A stretch of 32,000 bases of DNA, from NCBI GenBank assembly GCA_048886185.1, contig JBHLKY010000007.1, forward strand, positions 150,001 to 182,000, given 5' to 3'. Of this stretch, positions 1 through 29,134 are shown one piece after another (positions within the stretch are counted from its first letter, which is position 1; every line of letters starts with the position of its first letter). The DNA comes from Candidatus Hermodarchaeota archaeon. Its GTDB lineage: Archaea > Asgardarchaeota > Heimdallarchaeia > Hodarchaeales > Hodarchaeaceae. A program made the position numbers and the translations under genes. Below the pieces are notes generated by a model. The model searched no databases. It saw only the letters and a program-made list of their open reading frames with translations, and had not been told where the DNA came from.

Positions 1-4
1 CATC

Positions 5-475
5 ATGGATAGTGAAATTATCCCAGCTATTACTCCTGTCGGATATGCAGCAAAACATCGTAGTAAAGTTGATAGATTGGCACGTTGGGCAGCTCGGTCA
101 AAAAATCGCTACCCTTTTACAAATTTATTCTTCGAAGGAGACTGTAAGCATCCGCTTACTCAAGAGAAAGCAGTTCCATACGATATACCATTGGAGATGA
201 TACGAATTGCTCCCTCGGCATCCAATCGACAACCTTGGCGAATTATAAAGGAAATTGATAGCCATCATTACCATTTCTTCATTCTTCGGAATAGAAGCTG
301 GTACAGCCACTTTCTCTCATGGCCTGATTTTCCAAGGGTTGATCTAGGAATCGCTATATGTCACTTTAATTTAACTGTTCAAGAATTATGTCTTCAAGGA
401 AGGTGGCAATTTATTCGACCTAAATTCACCATTCCAAATCATCTAGAATATTTCATCTCATGGATTAGTGAGTAA
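5..475 (+). CDS. Nitroreductase family protein, C-terminal part (probably 5'-truncated by the window edge)
   Basis: Motifs RIAPSASNRQPW and VDLGIAICHF; the frame is open back to the window start. Confidence 0.85.
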   Translation: MDSEIIPAITPVGYAAKHRSKVDRLARWAARSKNRYPFTNLFFEGDCKHPLTQEKAVPYDIPLEMIRIAPSASNRQPWRIIKEIDSHHYHFFILRNRSWYSHFLSWPDFPRVDLGIAICHFNLTVQELCLQGRWQFIRPKFTIPNHLEYFISWISE

Positions 476-510: not shown

Positions 511-2526
511 ATGTTAACAACTCACTCATTTAAGAACTACATCAATCAATTTTATTCAGAATTAGCCCTAATCAGTATAACATTTCTATTTTTCTTCGAA
601 TTAATATCGGATTTCGTAGAGGCAATTTATGCCCTCTGTCTTTTGACTCTATCCCTCAATGAGAACATTCTAAGCATTATTTTTCTCTTTTCTCCTATAC
701 TTCTAGTATTCTTAAGGAAAAACTTTTCAGATAAAATTCTCATTATTGTTGGGGAATTAATGGTTGTTTCTCGAATTCTTGAACCATTATTAAGCAATTA
801 CACACAAATTAGGATGATAGTTGCTGGTTTGGGCGTTGCTTGTTTTCTTATTTTTTTACCGTTATTTCTCTACCGAAAATATGGGTATGAAGAAGAGCAA
901 AGTGCTATAACAATTGGATTAGGATTGAGTATTGGATTAGCATTATCAATTTTGTTTAGGACAATTGGTTCATCAATTGATATTTCCACTTATAGCTGGT
1001 TTCAATCGATTGGTTGGATACTGGCAATAGTCGCAGGTATCATGTTTCTTGGCTTGGTAACAAGAGAGCAAAAGGTCGCTAACTCATTAAGTCTAGGAGA
1101 CTCTATTAGTATTTGGAGAACAGTAGGGCTCACAATTGGCTTAATTGGAATTCTAATGATGATATATTATACTTTTGCTAGTCCTACTGTCGTTTCTAGG
1201 TGGACTGAAGGGAATTACTTTCTTATTGTCTTCTTAGCTATTATTATGCTTACTCTCTTTGTTGTTATTGTAATAATGAAGCGTGATTTATTGAAGAGAT
1301 TAGATCCTTGGATAATTTGGTTAGGGAATGCCCTTTTTGTTATATCATTAGTCTTAACAATCATGCTAAATCAAACAGATTTTTCAAGAAATGCTTATCC
1401 AATTGATGCCCTTCCGACAACAATACTAAATCATATACCACTAATCTTGATGATATTTCTTTTCCCAATAATCTTAGTTGATTTTATGTTAATCTCTCGT
1501 GAGGTAATAATTAACAAACCAACATTGGGGAAATTAGCTGTGGGTTTCGCTCTCGCATCGATGTTTTTCTTACTTATGATCTTTGCACATGTTTTTACGA
1601 CAGTTTATGACTACATTGATGTTGTTGGCCCTTTTTTTCGTGACATGTTTTGGTTTGTGTATTTAATCGGGGGATTGAGTGTTGCCTTACCAGTATTTTT
1701 TGTGAGAAGGGGAGCTTTCATTTTCGATCCATTCGTTCTCGAATTCCGATCCAAGATAGTTGCTATAGTTATTATGACCATTACAATAGGAACTATTTTT
1801 GCTGCGTTTCTAACCGCCCCCACGCCTCCTACTCTTGGAGAAACCCCCTCAATAACTGTTTTGACTTATAATATTCAACAAGGATATAGCGAAGATGGCA
1901 TTAAAAATATTGATGGTCAATTACACGTAATTAAAGCAATTAATCCTGATATTATTGGATTACAGGAATGTGATACAGCTAGGATTGCTAATGGAAACAT
2001 GGATGTCGTTAGATATTTTGCTAATAATCTGAATATGTATTCTTATTATGGTCCGAAGACAGTTACGGGAACATTTGGGATTGCATTACTCTCAAAATAT
2101 CCAATCATGAATCCTAATACTTTTTTCATGTCTAGTGAAGGTGAACAGGCAGCAACCATTACAGCACAAATCAAAGTGGGTACGATTCTTTTGAATGCAT
2201 TTGTGACACATCTTGGTAATGGTGGCCCCCTTGTGCAACAAGAAGAAATACTTGATCGGATCGAAGGAAAAAACAATCTAATTCTGATAGGTGATTTTAA
2301 TTTTAGACCAGGTACTATCCAGTATAATAAAACCATGAGTAATTTAAATGATTCATGGTTAATCTCACAGACTTCAAATCTAGAATATTTGGATGATATT
2401 GAATACAACATTAATCGAAGGATAGATCACATCTTTGTATCTTTCGGAGTAGCTGTTTCCGAATGTGAATATATTGTAAGTAAAGAATCAGACCACCCAG
2501 CAGTTTGGGCTGAAATCATACTATAG
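511..2526 (+). CDS. Polytopic membrane protein with C-terminal endonuclease/exonuclease/phosphatase (EEP) domain, CWH43/PGAP2IP-like architecture
   Basis: About 435 aa of hydrophobic helices, then EEP motifs TYNIQQG, GLQE, THLG, GDFN, IDHI and SDH. The segment DIIGLQECDTARIANGNMDVVRYFANNLNMYSYYGP resembles the Cwh43 C-terminal domain as recalled. Confidence 0.8.
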   Translation: MLTTHSFKNYINQFYSELALISITFLFFFELISDFVEAIYALCLLTLSLNENILSIIFLFSPILLVFLRKNFSDKILIIVGELMVVSRILEPLLSNYTQIRMIVAGLGVACFLIFLPLFLYRKYGYEEEQSAITIGLGLSIGLALSILFRTIGSSIDISTYSWFQSIGWILAIVAGIMFLGLVTREQKVANSLSLGDSISIWRTVGLTIGLIGILMMIYYTFASPTVVSRWTEGNYFLIVFLAIIMLTLFVVIVIMKRDLLKRLDPWIIWLGNALFVISLVLTIMLNQTDFSRNAYPIDALPTTILNHIPLILMIFLFPIILVDFMLISREVIINKPTLGKLAVGFALASMFFLLMIFAHVFTTVYDYIDVVGPFFRDMFWFVYLIGGLSVALPVFFVRRGAFIFDPFVLEFRSKIVAIVIMTITIGTIFAAFLTAPTPPTLGETPSITVLTYNIQQGYSEDGIKNIDGQLHVIKAINPDIIGLQECDTARIANGNMDVVRYFANNLNMYSYYGPKTVTGTFGIALLSKYPIMNPNTFFMSSEGEQAATITAQIKVGTILLNAFVTHLGNGGPLVQQEEILDRIEGKNNLILIGDFNFRPGTIQYNKTMSNLNDSWLISQTSNLEYLDDIEYNINRRIDHIFVSFGVAVSECEYIVSKESDHPAVWAEIIL

Positions 2527-5690: not shown

Positions 5691-6668
5691 TCAGATCTGC
5701 GTGTTTTTCCATATTACTCTATAACCACCGATTAATAATCCTCCTATAATAAATAGTACAATTGTGGGAATAACTAATGCTCCAGCTAATCCCGTGAGAT
5801 CAAGAACTATTCCTTCTGGTTTTGAGGAATAATAGAGAACGCTATTTTCCCCCGTTAACATGTACGAGAAGACTGAAAGGACAGTGAAAAAATCAAGATA
5901 CATTACTAGCTCAAAAGCTTCTGTTTGACCAATAAGGGATTGCACAATTATTGTACTAGATAGAAAAAACATGAATGATAATAAACCTGCATACAATCTT
6001 CTTTGGGTCAGAGAAGAAAACACAAGTATAATGCTTGAGAGAACTATTGTTAAAATCTCAGTAAAAAAGACAACTCCACAAAGGACTGGAAAAGCTACAA
6101 GGATATCGACTGAACTTCCAATGCCTATAATCAATAAGACCCATTCAATGACACAAGGTAATGTATAGAAAAGATTACCGAAAATAAGAAGAGAACCATA
6201 TTTTCCGAATAGATATTCATATCTACTTACTTTTGAATCATAAATCTCCGAAACCTTATATCGAAGATCATCCGATATTAGCCCAGCTCCCATGATTACT
6301 ACCCCAATCAACATCAAAATCGAGAATCCTGTGTCGAAAGTTGGATCTGTTTCGTCAGGAGCCGTTATCATTACTTGGAATCGGGCGAAATTGCGAACTG
6401 TACTCCATAAGTGATCCTCTAAAATCTCATTGGACGTTTGTGTCTCTAGTTGAGTGTCTAATCCTACAAAAAGAAACATATTGGGAATGATTAGTATAAA
6501 AAGAGTAACAATGATTAGTATCTTGATAATTCGTGAACGATGCCATTGATGGATCATATTAAACCATGAGATTGACCATATTCGCCATAGTCTTCCTCTA
6601 TGTGTCCCCTCAAATGAACGAAATCCAAACCTTCTAACATATGCCTTTTCATTCACCTTAAACACCAT
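5691..6668 (-). CDS. ABC-2-type exporter permease-like membrane protein (no adjacent ATPase)
   Basis: About six hydrophobic helices and the GAGLISDDL...YEYLFGKY segment typical of ABC-2 permeases. Confidence 0.65.
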   Translation of the reverse strand: MVFKVNEKAYVRRFGFRSFEGTHRGRLWRIWSISWFNMIHQWHRSRIIKILIIVTLFILIIPNMFLFVGLDTQLETQTSNEILEDHLWSTVRNFARFQVMITAPDETDPTFDTGFSILMLIGVVIMGAGLISDDLRYKVSEIYDSKVSRYEYLFGKYGSLLIFGNLFYTLPCVIEWVLLIIGIGSSVDILVAFPVLCGVVFFTEILTIVLSSIILVFSSLTQRRLYAGLLSFMFFLSSTIIVQSLIGQTEAFELVMYLDFFTVLSVFSYMLTGENSVLYYSSKPEGIVLDLTGLAGALVIPTIVLFIIGGLLIGGYRVIWKNTQI

Positions 6669-8581: not shown

Positions 8582-9367
8582 ATGAAAATCCTTCCAGTTG
8601 AACTCTCTCTCATTCAAGACATTATTGTCATAATTATCTCATTTATCATCAGTATACTGTTCTTCTATTTCACTGATTGGATAAAAAAGAAAGAGATTGC
8701 CTCGCAATACTTCACTCGTAAACTGATACACCTTGCTTTAGCCCCAATTTTTTTATTCACCTTTCTATTCTATTCAGGGGAATGGTTTAGTCCTTGGATC
8801 GCCGTTATAATTCCTATCATTTATTTCATTGCAATTCTTTTGATTAATTTTGACATTATAAAATTAAGCCAGCTAACAACAACAATGAGTCGTTCTGGCG
8901 ACCCACGTGAACTTCTCCGTGGTATCGCTTACTATCTGGTTGTCGTGATCGTTGTTTGCATTATCGGGTGGACATCTTACCCTCTTATGACATGGTATAG
9001 CCCATTATCCATTTTTGTAATTACTATCCTAGCAATAGGAGATGGATTCGCGGACATTATTGGTCGCAAAGTAGATCGGTTAAAATTTAGAATTTTCGCT
9101 GATAAATCCATCCCTGGATCCCTAGCAATGTTTTTCTCTTCCCTTGCTGGTTGTCTGGCATTTCTAGCTGTTTTTGGCTACAATGTCCTAACTATGACTT
9201 TTCTTACTGTTTTAATTGTATTAATTGCTACAATCGTTGAGGCATTTTCTCTTGGTGACTTGGATAATATAACGGTTCCCCTCAGTACCCTTATTGCTTT
9301 TTTAATACTGTCTCCAATTCTTGTACCTTCAGCTGAATGGTCTTTGTTATCATTACCTCTACCTTAG
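8582..9367 (+). CDS. CTP-dependent polyprenol/phytol/dolichol kinase family membrane protein
   Basis: TRKLIH, GDGFADIIG, KSIPGS and DNITVP motifs with multiple TM helices. Confidence 0.85.
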   Translation: MKILPVELSLIQDIIVIIISFIISILFFYFTDWIKKKEIASQYFTRKLIHLALAPIFLFTFLFYSGEWFSPWIAVIIPIIYFIAILLINFDIIKLSQLTTTMSRSGDPRELLRGIAYYLVVVIVVCIIGWTSYPLMTWYSPLSIFVITILAIGDGFADIIGRKVDRLKFRIFADKSIPGSLAMFFSSLAGCLAFLAVFGYNVLTMTFLTVLIVLIATIVEAFSLGDLDNITVPLSTLIAFLILSPILVPSAEWSLLSLPLP

Positions 9368-9483: not shown

Positions 9484-11565
9484 ATGGATCAGAATAGACA
9501 AGCTAATCAATTAGCTAATGAAACAAGTCCTTATCTTCGTCAACATATGTATAATCCAGTCGAATGGTATCCATGGGAGGAAGGTTTGGCGAAAGCAAAG
9601 CAAAAAAATAAGCCATTACTAATCTCAATAGGTTATGCGGCTTGTCATTGGTGTCATGTCATGGAAAAGGAATCATTCGAGGATCCTGAGACTGCTGTAC
9701 TAATGAATGAGCTATTTATCAACATCAAAATTGATCGTGAAGAACGGCCAGATTTAGATTCATTTTACCAAAAAGCTGTTTCATTGATAACTAGAAGAGG
9801 GGGAGGATGGCCTCTTACTGTTTTTGCAACACCTTCAGGTGAGGCATTTCGGGGAGGAACATATTTTCCTAAGAAGGCGATGTATGGACTTCCGAGCTTT
9901 AAACAAGTACTTAAAAGCGTAGCAAGTGAGTATCAAAGAAAGAATAATCAAATTCAAGATATCTCACAAAATGTTATTTCAAATCTGAAAATGCAGTCAA
10001 GTACCGCAGCTGCAACCGATATATCACCTCTGAGTGATGTTCTCGATTCATCAATGATCCAATTAGTAGATCAAATTGATAATATCTTTGGTGGGTTTGG
10101 ATTTCAACCAAAATTTCCTCAAGTGACTGAATTACGATTCTTACTGCTTTCCTATTATCGGCATAAAAAAAATCGAGAATTGCTTAAGCCAATCACATTA
10201 ACTCTCGATAACATGGCTGCAGGAGGAATTTATGATCATTTAGGGTATGGTTTTCACAGATACTCAGTCGATCGAAAGTGGTTAATTCCTCATTTTGAGA
10301 AAATGCTTTACGATAATGCTCAACTTATTGACTTATATTTGGAAGCTTATCAAGTTACAAAACGTCCTAGATATGCAGAGATCGCTAGAGAAATAATAGA
10401 ATATCTTTGTCGTGAAATGAGGCATTTTGAGCATGGCGGGTTTTACTCCTCCCAAGATGCCGACTCAGAAGGAATCGAGGGGAAATTTTTTATCTGGAAG
10501 CCCCAAGAGATCCTGAATATCCTAGGTGAGAAGGATGGAAGGGAATTTTCTACTTATTATGGGATCACAAAAGATGGTAACTTTGAAAATGGTTATTCTA
10601 TCCTCCATGAAACAGTGGAACTCGGTAGTGCTATTGAAAAGGGTATTTCGTGGAACAAAATTCAGCAGTTAAAACAGAAGTTATTCTTTCACCGTGAAGA
10701 ACGTGAAAAGCCCTTTGTAAATGATAATATTATTGTCTCTTGGAATGCTCTAACCATTCATGCGTTGGCGAGAGCCTCATTTGTATTGAATGAACCTGAT
10801 TATTTGATTATGGCTGAAAAAGCACTTAACTTTATTTTAACACACCTAAGAGATGAATCAGGAAAACTTTTCCGAAACTTTCGTGAAAAAGTGAAATCCT
10901 TAGCTTTTGCAGAGGATTATGCTCTGATGATAAGATCCCTCTTGGAAGTTTTTTCTAGATTAGGAGAGAAAAAATATCTCGATGAGGCGCTGAAGCTACA
11001 AAAAATTCTGGATAAAGAATTTTGGGATCCAACTGATTTTGGGTATTATATTAGTGGTAGCCAGCAAAATGAATTAATAGTCCGCGAAAAACCTGTAGTG
11101 ACGTTTGCTCTTCCTAGTGCAAATGCAGTTAGTCTTAAGAATTTACTTCGTCTGTATCATTTTACAGGGGATGAAATGTTCTTGGAACAAGCAGAAAAAC
11201 AGGCCCATTTTCTTCTAGGCTGGTTTCAAGAGCATGGTTATTTGAGCGGGGATTCATTAATTGCGTTGGATATGTTTCTTAATAAACCCCTTGAGATAAT
11301 CGTTTTTAATGGAAGCGATATTAATGATTCAGATTCAACCGAGAATTTTCTTCGTGCAACATATTTACCTCAATCAGTTTCCATCTATGTTAAACCTGAT
11401 ACGCTCAATGAGTTAAGTCAGCTTCCTTTACTTGAACAAAGGCTTAATTCACAGGATTACCATGAATGGTTTAATGGAACTACATTCATCTGTAGAAATT
11501 TCACTTGCTCCCTCCCTTTAAACAGTGGATTAGATATCGATTTCTATTTAAAAGAGTCTGGATAG
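9484..11565 (+). CDS. yyaL: Thioredoxin domain-containing protein, YyaL/SPATA20 family
   Basis: [43 protein letters not shown] and [13 protein letters not shown]. Confidence 0.93.
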
Positions 11566-13702: not shown

Positions 13703-15472
13703 ATGTACTTGTCAAATTTATCTCGCAGTGAACTCTGGCAGTTCTCAAAAAAAATTCATGAGGAGATCTACTTTCAGACACAATTAGCTACAGGAATTTC
13801 TACAAAAGTGGAAACTATTGAGAAATATGAAAAGAATCTTAAATCTCAAAGGAGATTAACACTTCTTGGAGGCTTGTTTATTTGTTATATTTTGGGAGTT
13901 GTTACAATATTACCGGCAATCGGCATCTTACAATTGGTTTCAATAGACATTACTTCTATTAACTTTGATGTGGTCGTATTTACATTTAGCTTAATACTAT
14001 CGGTTTATAACTTGTATATTTTGTTTATTCTATTCATGGCTAGTTTAATGAATTATGTAACCTTTATGAGAGGAGATTATTTCAGATTATTACGATCTCT
14101 TCCTTTAAGCTCTCATGATATGATCCAGTTAACCCTCTTTGTTTTCTTTCGTATGAATGCTATTCAGCTTATATTCATCCTTTTTGCCCTTCCAATTGTG
14201 GGATTCATTCTGACTCTTTCACCGTTATCTTTTTTTATCCTATTACTAAATAATCTTATTAATTTAGGATTCATTGTACCAGTGCTTGTAATAATCGCTT
14301 GGGTATTGGCTCAAAAAGTTTTTAATAATGCAGAGAAGTCTGCAGTGGGCCCAATTATAACAGTTCTTACAATAGTGGTGTATATATTAACAGTGATCCC
14401 GATATTTTTCCTTATGTCATCTTTATATCATATAATCAATATTTTATTCAATTCTAGTCTTATCACGGGAGAATTTACTCCAGAAATCAATTTTATCCTC
14501 ACATTAATCCCATTCCCTTTTTCTAGCAGTTATTTAACGACAATACTATTATTATTGCCCCCTAGTTCACTATCTCTGTCTTTAATACTGTCTTCTAGTT
14601 CTGGTGTTTTCGTTCTTTTGGGTATCATAACAATCGCTTTCAGGAAAGGGAGTTCATTAATACAAAAATTAGCATTTGAGCCATCTGTTGATAGTTATAA
14701 AGTTATATCAGAAAAAGACATTAGCATACAACTTAAAACTTCCCATCCAGTGTTTACTTTCATGAAAAAAAATTTAAAAATGGTCTTTCGTGATTATGGT
14801 GCTTTAACACTATTTGTATGTGGCTTGCTAATACCATCAATTCTTTTTATGTACTCAATTACGATGCCTAAAAGATACATTGATAGCAGTGGAGGCCAAT
14901 CTTGGTTTATATTATCAATGTTACTTCTTATGCCTGGATTCCTGATATTCATGTTTTTTAACAGTTTAAGACTATCTGAAAGGAATCTAGGAGGATTACT
15001 TTCCACTTTACCCTTTGAAGAAAAGGATCTTTTTCGATCTAAGCAAATTATTATAACAATTGGATGTTTACTCCCTGTTCTATTCATTTTTCTAATTCTT
15101 CAGGATTTTATGACAATTAATATGTATTATGCATCCATTAAAATCTTCTTTGCTAATATTATTGCTGTTTATATTTTTCTTATTCTATATGCTTTCTTTT
15201 TTGGTAAGATAAATAATCGTTATACCTTCACAACAGAGAACACTGAAAATCAAATTCTTAAATGGATAATAATCATGGTGGGCTTAAATGGATGCATTTT
15301 GTGTTATGTAAAACTCACTGAGATTGTTTCAGAATCTTTCTTGCACATTTTTAAATTCTGTTTCATTCTCTTGATTAGCCTGATTTTTATAATCATATTA
15401 GAATTTATTACAAAATGGATCTTTCCCCAAGAACCTTTGGTGAAATCAGTTAAGGGGATAAAACCATCTTAA
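13703..15472 (+). CDS. Large ABC exporter permease (multi-TM)
   Basis: Two hydrophobic halves, an LLRSLPL motif, and position 7 nt after the ATPase gene. Confidence 0.75.
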   Translation: MYLSNLSRSELWQFSKKIHEEIYFQTQLATGISTKVETIEKYEKNLKSQRRLTLLGGLFICYILGVVTILPAIGILQLVSIDITSINFDVVVFTFSLILSVYNLYILFILFMASLMNYVTFMRGDYFRLLRSLPLSSHDMIQLTLFVFFRMNAIQLIFILFALPIVGFILTLSPLSFFILLLNNLINLGFIVPVLVIIAWVLAQKVFNNAEKSAVGPIITVLTIVVYILTVIPIFFLMSSLYHIINILFNSSLITGEFTPEINFILTLIPFPFSSSYLTTILLLLPPSSLSLSLILSSSSGVFVLLGIITIAFRKGSSLIQKLAFEPSVDSYKVISEKDISIQLKTSHPVFTFMKKNLKMVFRDYGALTLFVCGLLIPSILFMYSITMPKRYIDSSGGQSWFILSMLLLMPGFLIFMFFNSLRLSERNLGGLLSTLPFEEKDLFRSKQIIITIGCLLPVLFIFLILQDFMTINMYYASIKIFFANIIAVYIFLILYAFFFGKINNRYTFTTENTENQILKWIIIMVGLNGCILCYVKLTEIVSESFLHIFKFCFILLISLIFIIILEFITKWIFPQEPLVKSVKGIKPS

Positions 15473-15629: not shown

Positions 15630-16319
15630 TCACTTTACTAAAAACCTGCTAATAAAGGAATTTATTCTCCACCAAATGTAATCAAGCCAATCAGCAAATT
15701 GGTTGATAATAGGTACCTCCATTTTCTCAATTAAAAAAGCAAGTAATATTGTTCCTATAAACCCTAAAACTTTAGAAGAGACATCATGTCCCCAATAAAA
15801 TGCAGCTTCAGCATCCATGTCGAAATATAACACTAAAATTGTTATGGACCAGAAATGGAAGGTTATTCTGAATACATTCATGAAGAATAATACGATAAAT
15901 GTTATTATAGTCGCTTTTAGCTTTGAGGATCTTGATGTTTCGGATACAAAGATAATACTAATGAGTAGAGCTCCTGCCTGCATCGCTGTACATGTTTTAG
16001 AAATATAATACCTACCATTTGTTAGTGGAATAAAAACTCCAGGTGTTTTTTCCGTTGCTTCTAAGAATGGGAAGGATCCTCCTCGAAGCTCCATTGGTAT
16101 AATAAATTGTCCATTGAAGGGTATAGGTTCACTAACAATACCCAACAATGAGAGAAGGAATTGAACGAGATCTCTAATAGGATATTCAAGAAAAACCCAG
16201 TCAGGAACAGTATAAATTAGAAATGTCAAAAAAGAAGCAACAGTAATGGATGTAAGCATAAGTTTGTCATTTTGGAATCTTCTATGTTGATTACTCTCAC
16301 TATTTTTTGTCAAATCCAT
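15630..16319 (-). CDS. Exosortase/archaeosortase family transpeptidase
   Basis: Polytopic protein with Cys (ISKTCTAM), Arg (NVFRI) and His (WGHDV) in exosortase order. ATG 16319 is preferred because longer starts overlap the upstream HTH gene. Confidence 0.8.
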   Translation of the reverse strand: MDLTKNSESNQHRRFQNDKLMLTSITVASFLTFLIYTVPDWVFLEYPIRDLVQFLLSLLGIVSEPIPFNGQFIIPMELRGGSFPFLEATEKTPGVFIPLTNGRYYISKTCTAMQAGALLISIIFVSETSRSSKLKATIITFIVLFFMNVFRITFHFWSITILVLYFDMDAEAAFYWGHDVSSKVLGFIGTILLAFLIEKMEVPIINQFADWLDYIWWRINSFISRFLVK

Positions 16320-16326
16320 CAATATC

Positions 16327-16545
16327 CTATTTCTCTGCAAATATGAAAATATCTTCAATTTTACAGTCAAATAGACGTGCAATCTTGAATGCTAGAGTAA
16401 GAGAAGGGTTATATTTTCCTTTTTCAATAGCGATAACGGTTTGTCTGGTGATGTTCAACTTATTGGCCAATTCTTCCTGTGTTAAACTATTTTCTTTGCG
16501 TAATTCTTTCAAACGGTTTTTAATCCTCATCACCGCGGATTTCAT
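16327..16545 (-). CDS. XRE/Cro-C1 family helix-turn-helix regulator
   Basis: KNRLKELRKENSLTQEELANKLNITRQTVIAIEKGKYNPSLTLAFKIARLF; ATGA overlap with the upstream gene. Confidence 0.95.
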   Translation of the reverse strand: MKSAVMRIKNRLKELRKENSLTQEELANKLNITRQTVIAIEKGKYNPSLTLAFKIARLFDCKIEDIFIFAEK

Positions 16546-26726: not shown

Positions 26727-27536
26727 ATGCAAGTACAAGAAACTATAATTGAAACAAAACAAACTAAAAAAGTTCTTATCCGCACGGATAAGTTATCGAA
26801 ATATTATGGAAAAGAGATCAAAGCCGTGGAGGAGCTCGATCTTGAAGTATATGAAGGAGAAACATTCGGACTTCTTGGTCCTAACGGAGCTGGAAAAACC
26901 ACGACAGTTCGTCTTCTAAACTGTATTCTAAAACCAACCAGTGGTACTGCTGCTGTGAATAGCTACAACATTCTAAAAAATCCAAGAGAAGTAAAAGCCA
27001 TTTCTGGGTTGTTAGCGGAATCCCCAGGATTATATGAGAAGCTTAGTGCTTATGAGTTTCTTGAATTCATGGGAGCCCTTTATAATATCAAAGGAAATAT
27101 CCTAAAAGATAGGATTGAAGAGCTTTTAAAGCTATTCGGTCTTATAGAGAGGAAAGATTTTCTCCTTGAAGGTTTTAGCTCTGGAATGAAACAGAAAGTG
27201 TTAATTGCCGCAGCATTAATTCATGATCCTTCTATCATATACTTCGATGAACCTACAGCAGCACTGGATCCTCGTGCCGCTCACATGGTTAAAGATCTAA
27301 TTAAGGGATTAGCTGATCAACTTGGAAGAACTATTGTGATTTGCAGTCATATTCTTCCGATCGTTGAGGAGCTATGTGATCGAATTGGTATAATTAACCA
27401 AGGACGACTCATTGCTGTGGGTACAGTTGATGAAATCATTGCTCAAGCAGGAACTGAAACACTAGAAGAAGCTTTCATTGTCTTAACTGGAGGAATTGAT
27501 GAAAAAGAACTCCTAGCTTGGAGGAATCACAATTGA
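26727..27536 (+). CDS. ABC exporter ATP-binding protein
   Basis: GPNGAGKTT, FSSGMKQK, IYFDEP and CSH switch. Confidence 0.95.
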   Translation: MQVQETIIETKQTKKVLIRTDKLSKYYGKEIKAVEELDLEVYEGETFGLLGPNGAGKTTTVRLLNCILKPTSGTAAVNSYNILKNPREVKAISGLLAESPGLYEKLSAYEFLEFMGALYNIKGNILKDRIEELLKLFGLIERKDFLLEGFSSGMKQKVLIAAALIHDPSIIYFDEPTAALDPRAAHMVKDLIKGLADQLGRTIVICSHILPIVEELCDRIGIINQGRLIAVGTVDEIIAQAGTETLEEAFIVLTGGIDEKELLAWRNHN

Positions 27537-29134
27537 TTTCGTTCCGAAACACTCGTTGGTTACCAATCGCTAAAACCGAATATCGTGTAACAACGAGTCG
27601 AATTCGTGAAATTAGGCCTTATCTTCCCTATATATTAATTGGAGGATTGGCTATTTATACCTTTTTCATAGCTCCTTATATCATTGATATGTTTGTCGAT
27701 GAATTACACGAGTTATTGCTTTCAGCTGTAGCTGTAGCTCTTATCGATGTGTTCTTTTTCGTATTTTTTGTAATGTTTGCGTCTTTTCCAATCGCGTCAA
27801 CTTTACAGGATATTAAAACAGAACATATTGAGATCTATCTTTCTTCTCCTGTCCTATCTAGTGATATTTTGATTGGTGAATTCTTGGGAAAAATCCCCTT
27901 TTATGCTGCCTTTGCAGCGATCATTGGTGGTACTTTTACCGCGGCATTGTTCCCCCTTGGTTTAGACATCTTCCAGATTTTCATTATTCTTGTAGTTTTT
28001 ATAATCCTCTTCCTAACAGCTACTTGGGTTGGAAACCTAATAGCTGCGCTATTACGATCAATTTTAATGAAATCAGCTCGAGGAAGAGATATTGGTAAAG
28101 GTTTAGCAATAATCGTAATCTTACCATTAGTTGCTGTAATATATCTATTAATTGGTGGATATTATGAAGTTCTTAAAAATCCTGAAAACGCAAAGCTTGT
28201 CCAGGATCTGTTCGGATTCTTTCCATGGGGATGGGGATCAGAGACCATCGTAGCTCTTGCCCAGAATCCTGGAAATATCTTGGATATTGAATTCACAACA
28301 ATCATACAATTCAGCACATTAGTAACCTTCTTCTGTGCTTCTCTTTTGATAGGTGGATTTTTAGCCAATCGTTTATACAATCTTGAACCAACTTCTTTTT
28401 CCGCCTCTAAATCAAAATCAGACAGTTTCTTCTATAACTCTATCACAAAGCTCGGTGGTGGTGGATCATCAGGCCTTCTTCTTTCATTAGGGTTTAAGAC
28501 CTATTTTCGGAAAGCAAAAAACGTTGCGTGGATAATCTATTGCGTGGGTTTAATTGTTGTAATGAATATCTTCCTAACACAGCCTGATGATCCAGAGAGT
28601 GCCTTTGTTATGTCTTTATTTATAGGCCCTCTTTTAGCGGCTTTCGTTACTTCTGATATCAGTCTACAGGGAAAAGAAAACCTCTTACTCTATAAGCAAA
28701 CCCCTACGATGACAAGAAAATATTTGAGGATTAAACTGTTTCAATATCTATTAATAATTCTACCAATCGTATTAATTGTTGAAACTACTGTCAACTTACT
28801 TGTTCCAGAAATAACATTGGATATACTGTTTCTTAATGTTATCTTGACACTCCTCATTGCCACAGCAGCTATTACTTTTACGTTTGGTTTATTTCTAGTA
28901 AATCCCGCATTTCATGACAAAAGTGGTGAATTCATGATTAATATCCAAATTTGTGTTTTTGGAGTCATGATTCCATTCTTTATTTTGATGATTTTCTTGG
29001 ATCCGATTCTGTGGGATGTATTTGCCATCGCAGATGCACTCTATCCTGTGGCAGTAATTTATTCTGCTTTACAACTGATCTTTGGTATAATCATGGTCTC
29101 GCTAGGAGCAAGAAAACTCAATTCCATGGAGTAA
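27533..29134 (+). CDS. Large ABC exporter permease (multi-TM)
   Basis: Two hydrophobic halves; GGAGGA precedes TTG 27533, which overlaps the ATPase stop (preferred over 27518). Confidence 0.78.
   Translation: MISFRNTRWLPIAKTEYRVTTSRIREIRPYLPYILIGGLAIYTFFIAPYIIDMFVDELHELLLSAVAVALIDVFFFVFFVMFASFPIASTLQDIKTEHIEIYLSSPVLSSDILIGEFLGKIPFYAAFAAIIGGTFTAALFPLGLDIFQIFIILVVFIILFLTATWVGNLIAALLRSILMKSARGRDIGKGLAIIVILPLVAVIYLLIGGYYEVLKNPENAKLVQDLFGFFPWGWGSETIVALAQNPGNILDIEFTTIIQFSTLVTFFCASLLIGGFLANRLYNLEPTSFSASKSKSDSFFYNSITKLGGGGSSGLLLSLGFKTYFRKAKNVAWIIYCVGLIVVMNIFLTQPDDPESAFVMSLFIGPLLAAFVTSDISLQGKENLLLYKQTPTMTRKYLRIKLFQYLLIILPIVLIVETTVNLLVPEITLDILFLNVILTLLIATAAITFTFGLFLVNPAFHDKSGEFMINIQICVFGVMIPFFILMIFLDPILWDVFAIADALYPVAVIYSALQLIFGIIMVSLGARKLNSME

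Follow-up and report, generated by a model that had tools for sequence, protein, structure and literature searches.

A divergent whole-length relative of PGAP2IP/Cwh43 in an Asgard archaeon, with a predicted MFS-like membrane domain and an intact EEP phosphodiesterase site

The gene at positions 511–2526 of the forward strand of the window (the whole 32,000-nucleotide stretch of a Candidatus Hermodarchaeota contig analysed here) encodes a genuine relative of mammalian PGAP2IP (gene CWH43) and of the C-terminal two-thirds of fungal Cwh43, divergent but related over its whole length, and not a generic EEP domain on an unrelated anchor. It belongs to a divergent branch of this family, the 'Asgard/Chloroflexus group' already known from PMC10704324. 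On balance we consider it probable that the protein, as a member of the PGAP2IP/Cwh43-C family, works as one integrated enzyme in the membrane and processes a lipid head-group phosphodiester at the outer face.

Results

The open reading frame is complete and comprises 671 codons plus stop; reading of the ORF together with full-length homologues gives an MFS-fold membrane domain, a linker helix and an EEP phosphodiesterase domain (511–2526, +). Its start is the first one downstream of an in-frame stop, and only eight open codons lie upstream of it. In the sequence collection the gene call begins at the alternative start M84 and yields 588 aa. We favour the longer form because homologue alignments reach residues 1–20, because Y40, L44 and P62, all located before M84, are nearly invariant and because the 12-helix fold requires TM1–3. 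The gene is present in a single copy in the host genome. A 35-nt A+T-rich spacer, found by sequence reading (476–510, +), follows the stop codon of a nitroreductase gene, and inside it, about 20–30 nt upstream of the ATG, lies TTTTTTAAAATAAAG, a possible archaeal TATA/BRE element. If this is true, the gene may have its own promoter, and its mRNA may be leaderless or carry a short leader.

The EEP domain covers residues 447–671 (1849–2523, +), is predicted to be extracytoplasmic and was identified by Pfam, Foldseek and profile matches. Specifically, it scores 86.4 bits with the PGAP2IP subtype model PF23226 (cut-off 27) as compared to 58.3 bits with the generic PF03372, and PF23226 is matched by 69 of the 69 family members. 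The catalytic and metal-binding set consists of N454 (1870), E486 (1966), H567 (2209), D595/N597 (2293–2301), D639 (2425) and D661–H662 (2491–2496), i.e. 1870–2496 (+). In alignments A1 and A2, with 69–87 members, N454, E486, H567, N597 and H662 are invariant and D595, D639 and D661 are nearly invariant (at least 90%). The roles of the conserved residues are presumably those of EEP enzymes in general. As read from these alignments, the phosphodiesterase active site is intact and apparently active. The first-pass annotation had described a polytopic N-terminal region joined to an EEP domain with intact catalytic motifs, and this description stands, given the 13 TM helices predicted by AF2, the PF23226 match and the conserved residues; the strings that it quoted are also in place (GLQECDTARIANGNMDVVRYFANNLNMYSYYGP at residue 483, GIALLSKYPI at residue 523). 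A PDB search with the single sequence returned no match, and the same search with the family profile returned EEP domains only, mannosyl-6-phosphatase (4c1r) being among the best. Sphingomyelinases are found among both the profile and the fold matches of the domain.

The full-length AF2 model (pLDDT 93.4, pTM 0.94) predicts 13 TM helices within the N-terminal 434 residues, and these high values mean that the position of the EEP domain relative to the membrane domain is predicted to be fixed. TM1–TM6 (residues 17–184; 559–1062, +) would make up the N-terminal half of an MFS-like fold and are the predicted counterpart of the PGAP2IP 6TM_1st domain, as indicated by AF2, fold matches and hhalign to the PF23022-bearing TM region of the E-type proteins. 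By E-type we mean the Heimdall-class proteins of four Asgard genomes, G111 (protein P0289), G151, G152 and G159. TM7–TM12 (residues 201–397; 1111–1701, +) would form the C-terminal half and correspond to 6TM_2nd, based on a weak PF23021 match, hhalign and BLASTP to P0289. According to AF2, TM13 (residues 412–434; 1744–1812, +) is an extra helix through which the chain passes from the cytoplasm to the exterior, and a 12-residue linker follows it. All of the top 50 fold matches in VIA-align are MFS transporters (Z 12.9–17.8, 306–369 residues aligned), as are the top Foldseek matches of the membrane part, and lipid carriers are included (Spns1, Spns2, LtaA, EfpA and MFSD2A). The model shows the membrane part as a predicted twelve-helix, 6+6 MFS-transporter fold over TM1–12. 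Note that MFS_1 is absent from the Pfam matches of the window protein and from the 25 families listed for the 69 members at E up to 10, and that the TM2–TM3 loop reads LRKNFSDK, with no GxxxDRxGRR-like motif A. Polar residues within the membrane are conserved (E37, R88, N273 and D324), and it should be mentioned that these residues, together with a complete MFS fold, would also suit a true transporter, which counts against a lipid enzyme.

Six K/R-rich loops (residues 68–75, 121–130, 185–198, 256–267, 330–343 and 399–413) are situated on the inner side, opposite the EEP domain. From this positive-inside pattern we infer that the EEP domain and the loops 224–231 and 362–378 are placed outside the cell. 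The first of these loops, SPTVVSRW (residues 224–231; 1180–1203, +), is a predicted short outward-facing helix found conserved in the alignments; W231 is invariant, P225, V227 and R230 are nearly invariant, and the segment aligns with SNYGIIPRW in the E-type proteins. The second, FTTVYDYIDVVGPFFRD (residues 362–378; 1594–1644, +), also picked out by the alignments, is a predicted outward-facing loop after TM11 with nearly invariant Y368 and R377; its counterpart in P0289 is FATVYDYVPLGELFRE. Conservation of the membrane domain is concentrated in such outward loops adjoining the EEP domain and not along a translocation path. Moreover, the 12-helix domain with its invariant outward motifs is retained down to 26–30% identity.

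Kinship with CWH43/PGAP2IP, which had been put forward before any profile search, is borne out, mainly through intermediate sequences. The direct match of the window protein to PF23021 is weak (12.5 bits, residues 276–397, collinear, under the cut-off of 27), and the window ORF has no direct match to PF23022. Among the 69 family members PF23021 is matched by 13 (best E 9e-6) and is the sole TM family that recurs there, PF23022 is matched by 2 (best E 0.012), and in seven Asgard genomes a PF23021 match is located just upstream of the PF23226 match. TM-only hhalign of the window family against the four E-type sequences gave 98.4% with E 6.2e-15 over 315 columns, residues 20–249 align with the PF23022-bearing part of P0289 (E 2.6e-7), and the full-length comparison of the window family with the E-type reaches E 3.9e-41. 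BLASTP against P0289 gives a match from residue 346 onward, at about 30% identity over TM11 to the EEP domain. Our results indicate that the membrane part is homologous over TM1–12 to both PGAP2IP 6-TM domains via the E-type bridge. Generic EEP similarity combined with an unrelated TM region is not what the profiles show, the 12-TM domain being collinear with proteins that exceed all three PGAP2IP cut-offs. In the ESM Atlas there is an Ascomycota PGAP2IP cluster (608-aa representative) with a language-model score of 0.96; likeness to the eukaryotic cluster is equal for E-type and window-type proteins (0.96 each) and does not separate them. Homology searches for longer proteins with the family alignment, and with a 410-aa C-terminal alignment designed to leave out proteins of about 670 aa, matched prokaryotic proteins only. 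A published EEP sequence cluster names the 'Asgard/Chloroflexus group' beside Cwh43p and PGAP2IP; this group was set apart by size and domain organisation and left uncharacterised (J Biol Chem 2023, PMC10704324).

The family is patchy, occurring in 56 of the 151 Asgard genomes sampled. Full-length homologues are 62–68% identical in related Asgard MAGs and 45–50% identical in Chloroflexota, in agreement with the expectation that bacterial proteins of similar architecture may exist. Quick trees nested bacteria inside Asgard, and we do not adopt this arrangement: the main Asgard clade held together survives the AU test (p 0.57) and is 4.1 lnL better. G131 and G027 encode the TM part and the EEP part separately, in two genes that overlap, which argues for functional coupling of the two parts. 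Fusion with a Ste24-like membrane protease is recurrent (P0283 and P0284; 24 member sequences), and other PF23226 EEPs (P0270, P0285 and P0286) are fused with cell-surface lectin, SLH, PASTA or cohesin modules. Related loci were found with a 16-sequence alignment, and no conserved operon was detected among them; genes for an ABC ATPase, Sir2, SDR, nitroreductase, Fpg and a DNA methylase each occur in at most 10 of the 80 loci. Large apparent neighbour clusters turned out to be antisense ORFs within the gene itself, and a suspected tandem paralogue upstream of the window is absent, Fpg being in that place. That no conserved neighbourhood points to a pathway is an observation counting against the lipid-enzyme view.

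The first-pass annotation also proposed a role akin to GPI-lipid remodelling, and here the genome offers no backing. No match to GWT1, GPI2 or Gpi16 was found in the 96%-complete host genome (control genomes were all prokaryotic), and Frag1 (PF10277) has no match above cut-off genome-wide. Two candidates were discarded as GPI evidence: an apparent Frag1/PGAP2-like gene 30 kb upstream (C7:119943-120386) is DUF998 (80.9 bits), and a PIG-M match is borderline and GT87-like. The genome contains two myo-inositol-1-phosphate synthase (MIPS) homologues, an enzyme that is common in archaea, as the control genomes show, and hence not diagnostic. A GPI pathway role of the protein in its host is not supported.

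Discussion

How does the window protein compare with known systems? It shares with PGAP2IP and with the C-terminal two-thirds of Cwh43 the same order of parts, 6 TM, 6 TM and then EEP (for PGAP2IP the Pfam models PF23022 6TM_1st, PF23021 6TM_2nd and PF23226), a similar size (671 aa as compared to the 608-aa Ascomycota representative), the same EEP subtype with intact catalytic residues and an EEP domain that is extracytoplasmic or lumenal, which for the window protein is a prediction. It differs in that its direct TM Pfam scores are under cut-off and that its host has no detected GPI pathway. Full-length fungal Cwh43 additionally carries a Frag1/PGAP2-like N-terminal domain (PF10277), whereas the window ORF starts with TM1 and has no such domain. 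The GlcNAc-6-phosphocholine/phosphoethanolamine phosphodiesterases (GlcNAc-PDases) fall into the same EEP cluster and are metal-dependent extracellular phosphodiesterases, as the window protein would be, but they are soluble, secreted, single-domain proteins of 219–357 aa, in contrast to 671 aa and 13 TM helices here (PMC10704324). Neutral sphingomyelinases (Bacillus cereus SMase, Staphylococcus beta-hemolysin, human nSMase2) have the EEP fold and act on a lipid head-group phosphodiester; their sequence relation to the window EEP is distant (E 4e-5 to 0.1), and the bacterial ones, toxins or enzymes, are soluble and lack a polytopic domain. MFS lipid carriers (MFSD2A, Spns1/2, LtaA, LplT) have a similar fold, although the window protein lacks detectable MFS_1 membership. 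In LtaS and EptA a polytopic membrane domain is combined with an outward phosphoester-handling domain, a layout similar to that of the window protein. Polytopic head-group transferases of this kind (LtaS, EptA/MCR-1, GPI EtNP transferases) use a sulfatase/alkaline-phosphatase fold instead of EEP, and the likeness is in working principle only.

Most likely, the substrate is a membrane-embedded (glyco)phospholipid, which the protein would process at the outer face as a metal-dependent phosphodiesterase or head-group transferase. The MFS-like 6+6 domain would bind its substrate, a phosphodiester that is lipid-linked or embedded in the membrane, from the outer leaflet, possibly in the way in which MFS lipid flippases hold head groups. 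TM13 would bring the chain outside, so that the Mg2+/Mn2+-type EEP domain rests right against the external surface of the membrane domain, beside the conserved loops. The head-group phosphodiester could then be presented by the MFS-like domain to the EEP site and hydrolysed or trans-esterified there, in a PLC/SMase-like or head-group-exchange reaction. We infer the substrate class and reaction type from relatives, the nearest characterised EEP relatives being sugar-phosphate head-group enzymes (PMC10704324; 4c1r). The head group (inositol, sugar, ethanolamine or choline phosphate) and not the tails probably determines what serves as substrate, since ether-lipid archaea and Chloroflexota have proteins in common at 45–50% identity. 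It counts against this view that even for the eukaryotic relatives a catalytic role is so far deduced from genetics (PMC10704324).

Two other functions are unlikely, to a similar degree. In the first, hydrolysis would be coupled to uptake: the outward EEP domain frees a nutrient (phosphate ester, inositol, choline or sugar) from phosphodiesters outside the cell and a working MFS transporter imports the product. A complete MFS fold over TM1–12 (Z up to 17.8), conserved polar residues within helices, sediment-dwelling hosts and the existence of split two-gene forms agree with such a scheme, but no member matches MFS_1 among the Pfam families listed (E up to 10), the conserved positions are in the EEP-adjoining outward loops and not in the translocation path, and eukaryotic homologues are ER proteins for which no transport role is known.

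In the second, the protein would be a glycan-editing phosphodiesterase: N-glycans, S-layer glycans or glycolipids would lose phosphocholine, phosphoethanolamine or some other group attached through a phosphodiester, with the membrane domain serving mainly as anchor and positioner. This possibility fits the GlcNAc-6-PC/PE phosphodiesterase function of the characterised proteins in the EEP cluster (PMC10704324), the fusions of PF23226 EEPs with cell-surface modules and the mannosyl-6-phosphatase among the best PDB profile matches. However, one anchor helix would suffice for this task, yet a 12-helix domain is conserved to 26–30% identity, and in the split forms it is retained as a coupled gene. 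Soluble PF23226-type EEPs do handle glycans without a membrane domain, a further observation that counts against the lipid-enzyme view.

A much less probable alternative is an archaeal GPI-like anchor lipid remodelase, carrying out lipid exchange on an inositol-phospholipid-anchored glycan or protein as thought for Cwh43. Whole-length homology to PGAP2IP, the two MIPS homologues, which make inositol lipids plausible, and the fusion with a protease of lipid-modified proteins speak for it; the missing GWT1, GPI2 and Gpi16 matches, the reassignment of the Frag1 and PIG-M candidates, the presence of the clade in Chloroflexota and the non-diagnostic nature of MIPS speak against it. Least credible of all is a membrane-anchored extracellular nuclease: the EEP superfamily contains exonuclease III, and LINE-1 EN and TDP2 are among the fold matches, but the Xth NCBIfam models reach just 19–21 bits, far under their cut-offs, the PGAP2IP subtype scores highest and the conserved polytopic domain would be left unexplained.

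Returning to the preferred outer-face lipid head-group enzyme, the E-type deserves separate attention. These proteins pass all three PGAP2IP cut-offs (PF23022 29–42, PF23021 64–87 and PF23226 76–109 bits), and by this measure the most PGAP2IP-like Asgard version is the E-type, not the window gene. Both have the same architecture and the motifs RW and TVYDY(I/V)P in common; in trees the E-type clade is separate from the window clade, and the window's genome has no E-type copy. It is conceivable, if doubtful, that Heimdall-class Asgard hold an ancient set of PGAP2IP paralogues in which the E-type stands to eukaryotic PGAP2IP/Cwh43 as its direct sister or its ancestor and the window clade is a second branch, both acting on inositol- or sugar-phosphate lipid anchors. 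If this is true, lipid-anchor remodelling activity goes back to the archaeal ancestor and is older than the assembled GPI pathway.

Conclusions

To our knowledge no other enzyme of GPI-anchor lipid remodelling is as poorly understood as Cwh43/PGAP2IP, which has no structure and no in vitro activity; we likewise know of no substrate, product or phenotype for a prokaryotic family member. The role of the EEP domain of Cwh43/PGAP2IP is still called vague, and deletions in human CWH43 are linked to normal-pressure hydrocephalus. For the origin of eukaryotes our results are a lead and not an answer: the family is patchy and common to Chloroflexota, and Asgard hold several deep branches of it, one of which meets all three PGAP2IP Pfam models. 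The prokaryotic homologues, compact, whole-length and well predicted (pTM 0.94), are tractable proxies for the structure and chemistry of the family, and their models indicate an MFS-like fold for the membrane part, with conserved loops on the outer side that adjoin the active site.

Results

The ORF at window positions 511-2526 (+ strand) is single and unbroken and encodes 671 aa, position 511 being the earliest start past the in-frame stop. The public gene call starts at M84 and gives a protein of 588 aa. The longer start is right, because alignments of homologues begin at residues 1-20, Y40, L44 and P62 upstream of M84 are near-invariant, and TM helices 1-3 are needed for the MFS-like fold of the membrane part. 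An A+T-rich spacer of 35 nt immediately 5' of the ATG contains a TATA-like run, which suggests that the gene may have its own promoter.

The C-terminal part belongs to the PGAP2IP type of EEP (endonuclease/exonuclease/phosphatase) domains. Specifically, the Pfam model PF23226 ("PGAP2IP C-terminal nuclease-like domain") covers residues 448-641 with 86.4 bits (cut-off 27), while the generic EEP model PF03372 reaches 58.3 bits. The motifs quoted in the first-pass annotation were found at residues 483 and 523, and its statement that the EEP catalytic motifs are intact agrees with our alignments of 69 and 87 family members, where N454, E486, H567, N597 and H662 are invariant and D595, D639 and D661 are kept in at least 90% of the sequences. 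With these catalytic residues so conserved, the active site is intact.

The AlphaFold2 model of the full-length protein, built with an alignment of 69 sequences, is of high confidence (pLDDT 93.4, pTM 0.94) and has 13 transmembrane helices: TM1-TM4 at residues 17-46, 51-67, 74-94 and 98-122, TM5-TM8 at 128-152, 162-184, 201-222 and 236-256, and TM9-TM13 at 266-287, 305-335, 339-365, 380-397 and 412-434. There is a short surface helix at residues 225-232, and 12 linker residues connect TM13 to the EEP domain (447-671). The high pTM indicates a predicted fixed placement of the EEP domain relative to the membrane domain. The K/R-rich loops 68-75, 121-130, 185-198, 256-267, 330-343 and 399-413 are all on the same side of the membrane, which we take to be the cytoplasm. 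This would place outside both the EEP domain and the two most conserved motifs beyond it, SPxV(I/V)xRW (residues 224-231, with invariant W231) and FTTVYDYIPxVGPxFRD (residues 362-378).

Modelled alone (residues 1-440, pLDDT 91.9), the membrane part matches exclusively major-facilitator transporters. All 50 matches listed by VIA-align are MFS proteins (Z 12.9-17.8, 306-369 residues aligned, model residues 8-404), and the top Foldseek matches, at E about 1e-3 and TM-scores of 0.4-0.55, are likewise all MFS. Among the proteins matched are several that handle lipids, namely Spns1 with LPC, Spns2, LtaA, EfpA and MFSD2A. In sequence, Pfam detects no MFS_1 in the window's protein, nor is MFS_1 among the 25 families listed for 69 family members at E up to 10, and motif A is absent from the TM2-TM3 loop of the window's protein. 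In the model TM1-12 form an MFS-like 6+6 fold, with TM13 as an extra helix carrying the chain outside.

Direct Pfam evidence for a PGAP2IP-type membrane part is weak but specific. The second membrane model of PGAP2IP, PF23021 (6TM_2nd_PGAP2IP), gives 12.5 bits at residues 276-397, directly N-terminal to the EEP domain, and the first, PF23022, has no match in the ORF. When 69 family members were scanned singly, PF23021 matched 13 (best E 9.1e-6), PF23022 matched two (best E 0.012), and each remaining membrane family matched two of the 69 at most. PF23021 has 26 matches across 151 Asgard genomes; seven of these, the three best included, are followed directly by a PF23226 match on the same strand.

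The decisive link between the window's membrane part and PGAP2IP is a bridging subfamily, the E-type. In genome G111, which shares its class with the window's genome, an ORF of 630 aa (protein P0289; L085:2416-4305, + strand, contig C285) has PF23022, PF23021 and PF23226 in proper order and all over cut-off (42, 83 and 109 bits). The contig that carries it is prokaryotic: coding is dense on both strands, and NikR, NadA, GNAT and NUDIX genes are present. The other E-type loci are L091:1373-3253 (-), L092:1501-3297 (-) and L093:1429-3402 (+). Genomes G151 (66% identical, with the same genes on its flanks), G152 and G159 also have each of the three domains over cut-off, and the E-type scores range over 29-42 bits for PF23022, 64-87 for PF23021 and 76-109 for PF23226. 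An alpha/beta-hydrolase (Hydrolase_4) gene is conserved just downstream in G111 and G151. Of the prokaryotic forms seen here, the E-type comes closest in likeness to the eukaryotic one.

In hhalign, P0289 matches the profile of the window's family from end to end (E 3.9e-41, 599 columns). With the EEP domain removed from both, a TM-only profile of 24 sequences still matches the TM part of P0289 (E 2.6e-7), and against the four-sequence E-type TM profile it gives a probability of 98.4% and E 6.2e-15 over 315 columns from TM1 to TM12. Motifs common to both groups are ExxYxxxLxxxSxN (TM1-2), the RW helix and TVYDY(I/V)P. In addition, a protein-language-model search matched, with a score of 0.96, a PGAP2IP cluster of three-domain proteins that is exclusively eukaryotic (Ascomycota). 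From these alignments we conclude that the window's protein is probably a whole-length homologue of PGAP2IP/Cwh43-C, the membrane domain of which would have diverged past what Pfam models detect. The relation to Cwh43/PGAP2IP proposed earlier thus extends to both the TM and the EEP parts and is not generic EEP similarity alone.

In genomes G131 and G027 the membrane and EEP parts are encoded by two adjacent genes, the stop codon of one overlapping the start codon of the next. In G131 (contig C22, L086:4009-6053, - strand) they encode 399 aa (PF23021, 27 bits) and 281 aa (PF23226, 79 bits); in G027 (C7, L087:3465-5260, + strand) 412 aa (PF23021, 24 bits) and an EEP part cut by the contig end (PF23226, 83 bits). 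This gene overlap argues that the two parts may act jointly. A recurrent metagenomic form, P0283 (1138 aa) and P0284 (1096 aa), with 24 member sequences together, consists of a whole MFS-EEP protein followed by a Ste24-like CAAX prenyl protease module (Peptidase_M48_N + Peptidase_M48). Separately, P0278 (757 aa, one 3.3-kb JGI contig) combines the N-terminal half of a Wzx-like flippase (Polysacc_synt_3, 283 bits) with TM9-13 and the EEP domain of the family; either a real fusion or an artefact of assembly or gene calling could account for it.

With clustering at 50% identity, 246 clusters of the family reach E <1e-30, its full architecture is retained down to about 30% identity, and relatives are encoded in 258 stretches of species-representative genomes. 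Named archaeal members come from Hodarchaeota, Heimdallarchaeota, Promethearchaeota (Loki), Thor-, Hel- and Odinarchaeota, together with one Thermoplasmatota cluster. The earlier caveat that bacteria may have proteins of similar architecture was justified: Anaerolineae and other Chloroflexota have homologues at 45-50% identity. PF23226 is present in 56 of the 151 Asgard genomes sampled (28/72 of the high-quality ones), very unevenly across families.

Quick tree searches with the best 80 of 258 loci, rooted on the E-type, place the window's protein in a Hodarchaeales-like clade (support 99-100) and the bacterial sequences in a single clade (support 100) that falls within Asgard diversity. This nesting is uncertain: an AU test does not reject the alternative tree with the main Asgard clade kept together (p 0.57, 4.1 log-likelihood units better), so the trees do not fix donor and recipient of the gene.

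The window's genome has one copy. Its closest relatives have a second, very divergent paralogue of 642-646 aa on a long branch (L005:3072-5000, L006:3071-4999, L007:3085-5022 and L008:3057-4997, all + strand), upstream of the same nitroreductase gene that precedes the orthologue; in the window's genome this place is taken by an Fpg DNA glycosylase (L084:6541-7398, -). The nitroreductase, of TM1586 type and 289 aa, is the upstream neighbour of the window's gene (window 2-475, + strand, cut by the window's start; full gene L084:7606-8475) and is syntenic with the EEP gene solely in the six closest genomes. Downstream follow an arginine-deiminase/DDAH-like gene and then HIT, DNA methylase and NUDIX genes and one for an unassigned membrane protein. 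The first has no match at any related locus; the other neighbours, like the nitroreductase, recur in the 4-6 closest genomes only. No neighbour family occurs in more than 10 of 80 loci searched for a conserved operon, and the window's gene is a stand-alone unit.

Elsewhere in the window, four ORFs have no Pfam match at E <=1e-4: 13703-15472 (+, 589 aa), 27518-29134 (+, 538 aa), 8582-9367 (+, 261 aa) and 15630-16382 (-, 250 aa). A polytopic membrane protein at 5691-6668 (-, 325 aa) has no Pfam family at E <=1e-3, and the ORF at 9484-11565 (+, 693 aa) joins a DUF255/thioredoxin-domain to a six-hairpin glycosidase-like part (SSP411/SPATA20-like architecture).

Discussion

The protein has a metal-dependent EEP phosphodiesterase domain of the PGAP2IP subtype with an intact active site, predicted to lie outside in a rigid arrangement with an MFS-like domain, and the conserved residues of the latter cluster on the EEP side. 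Among relatives, the sole biochemically characterised members of the EEP cluster are phosphodiesterases removing phosphocholine or phosphoethanolamine from GlcNAc (PMC10704324), and the nearest solved structures include a mannosyl-6-phosphatase and sphingomyelinases. The best inference is that the membrane domain would take hold of its substrate, a lipid or a lipid-linked molecule, from the outer leaflet, and the EEP domain would next cleave or trans-esterify its head-group phosphodiester. Since the protein is common to archaea and Chloroflexota, the head group is probably what it recognises in the substrate.

Alternatives are a hydrolysis-coupled importer and a glycan-editing enzyme.

A third possibility is a true GPI-like remodelase. 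Cwh43 is required for swapping GPI-anchor diacylglycerol for ceramide (PMC13409885), and the role of its EEP domain has been described as still vague (PMC10704324). Two myo-inositol-1-phosphate synthase homologues in the window's genome (G000:C43:10202-10519 and G000:C2:108356-108676, both -; 112 and 66 bits) make inositol lipids possible; this enzyme is common among archaea. Against a remodelase, GWT1, GPI2 and Gpi16 had no match in this 96%-complete genome, and as all control genomes were prokaryotic these GPI markers are read as "not found" rather than "absent". Regarding other markers, the best intact-ORF match to Frag1 (19 bits) is a DUF998 membrane protein (211 aa, 80.9 bits; L088:1285-1920, + strand, = G000:C7:119784-120419, 30 kb upstream on the same contig), which is not evidence of PGAP2; the remaining Frag1 matches are in stop-interrupted frames. 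A PIG-M candidate (20-24 bits) matches GT87 equally well. A nuclease is the last alternative; with the window's protein, NCBIfam exonuclease III models reach no more than 19-21 bits (cut-offs 99-280).

Neither the family nor its link to Cwh43/PGAP2IP is new to the literature: an "Asgard/Chloroflexus group" was shown in the same EEP cluster, its differing size and domain organisation were remarked on, and the group was not studied (PMC10704324). Pfam annotation of the EEP domain agrees with this link. The present analysis adds the E-type subfamily, which matches each of the three PGAP2IP Pfam models, a proof of homology by profile-profile alignment of the TM region alone, the forms split into two genes, the Ste24 fusion, and an Asgard-versus-bacteria branching order left undecided by the AU test. 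The main value of these compact prokaryotic proteins is as a route to the chemistry and origin of PGAP2IP.
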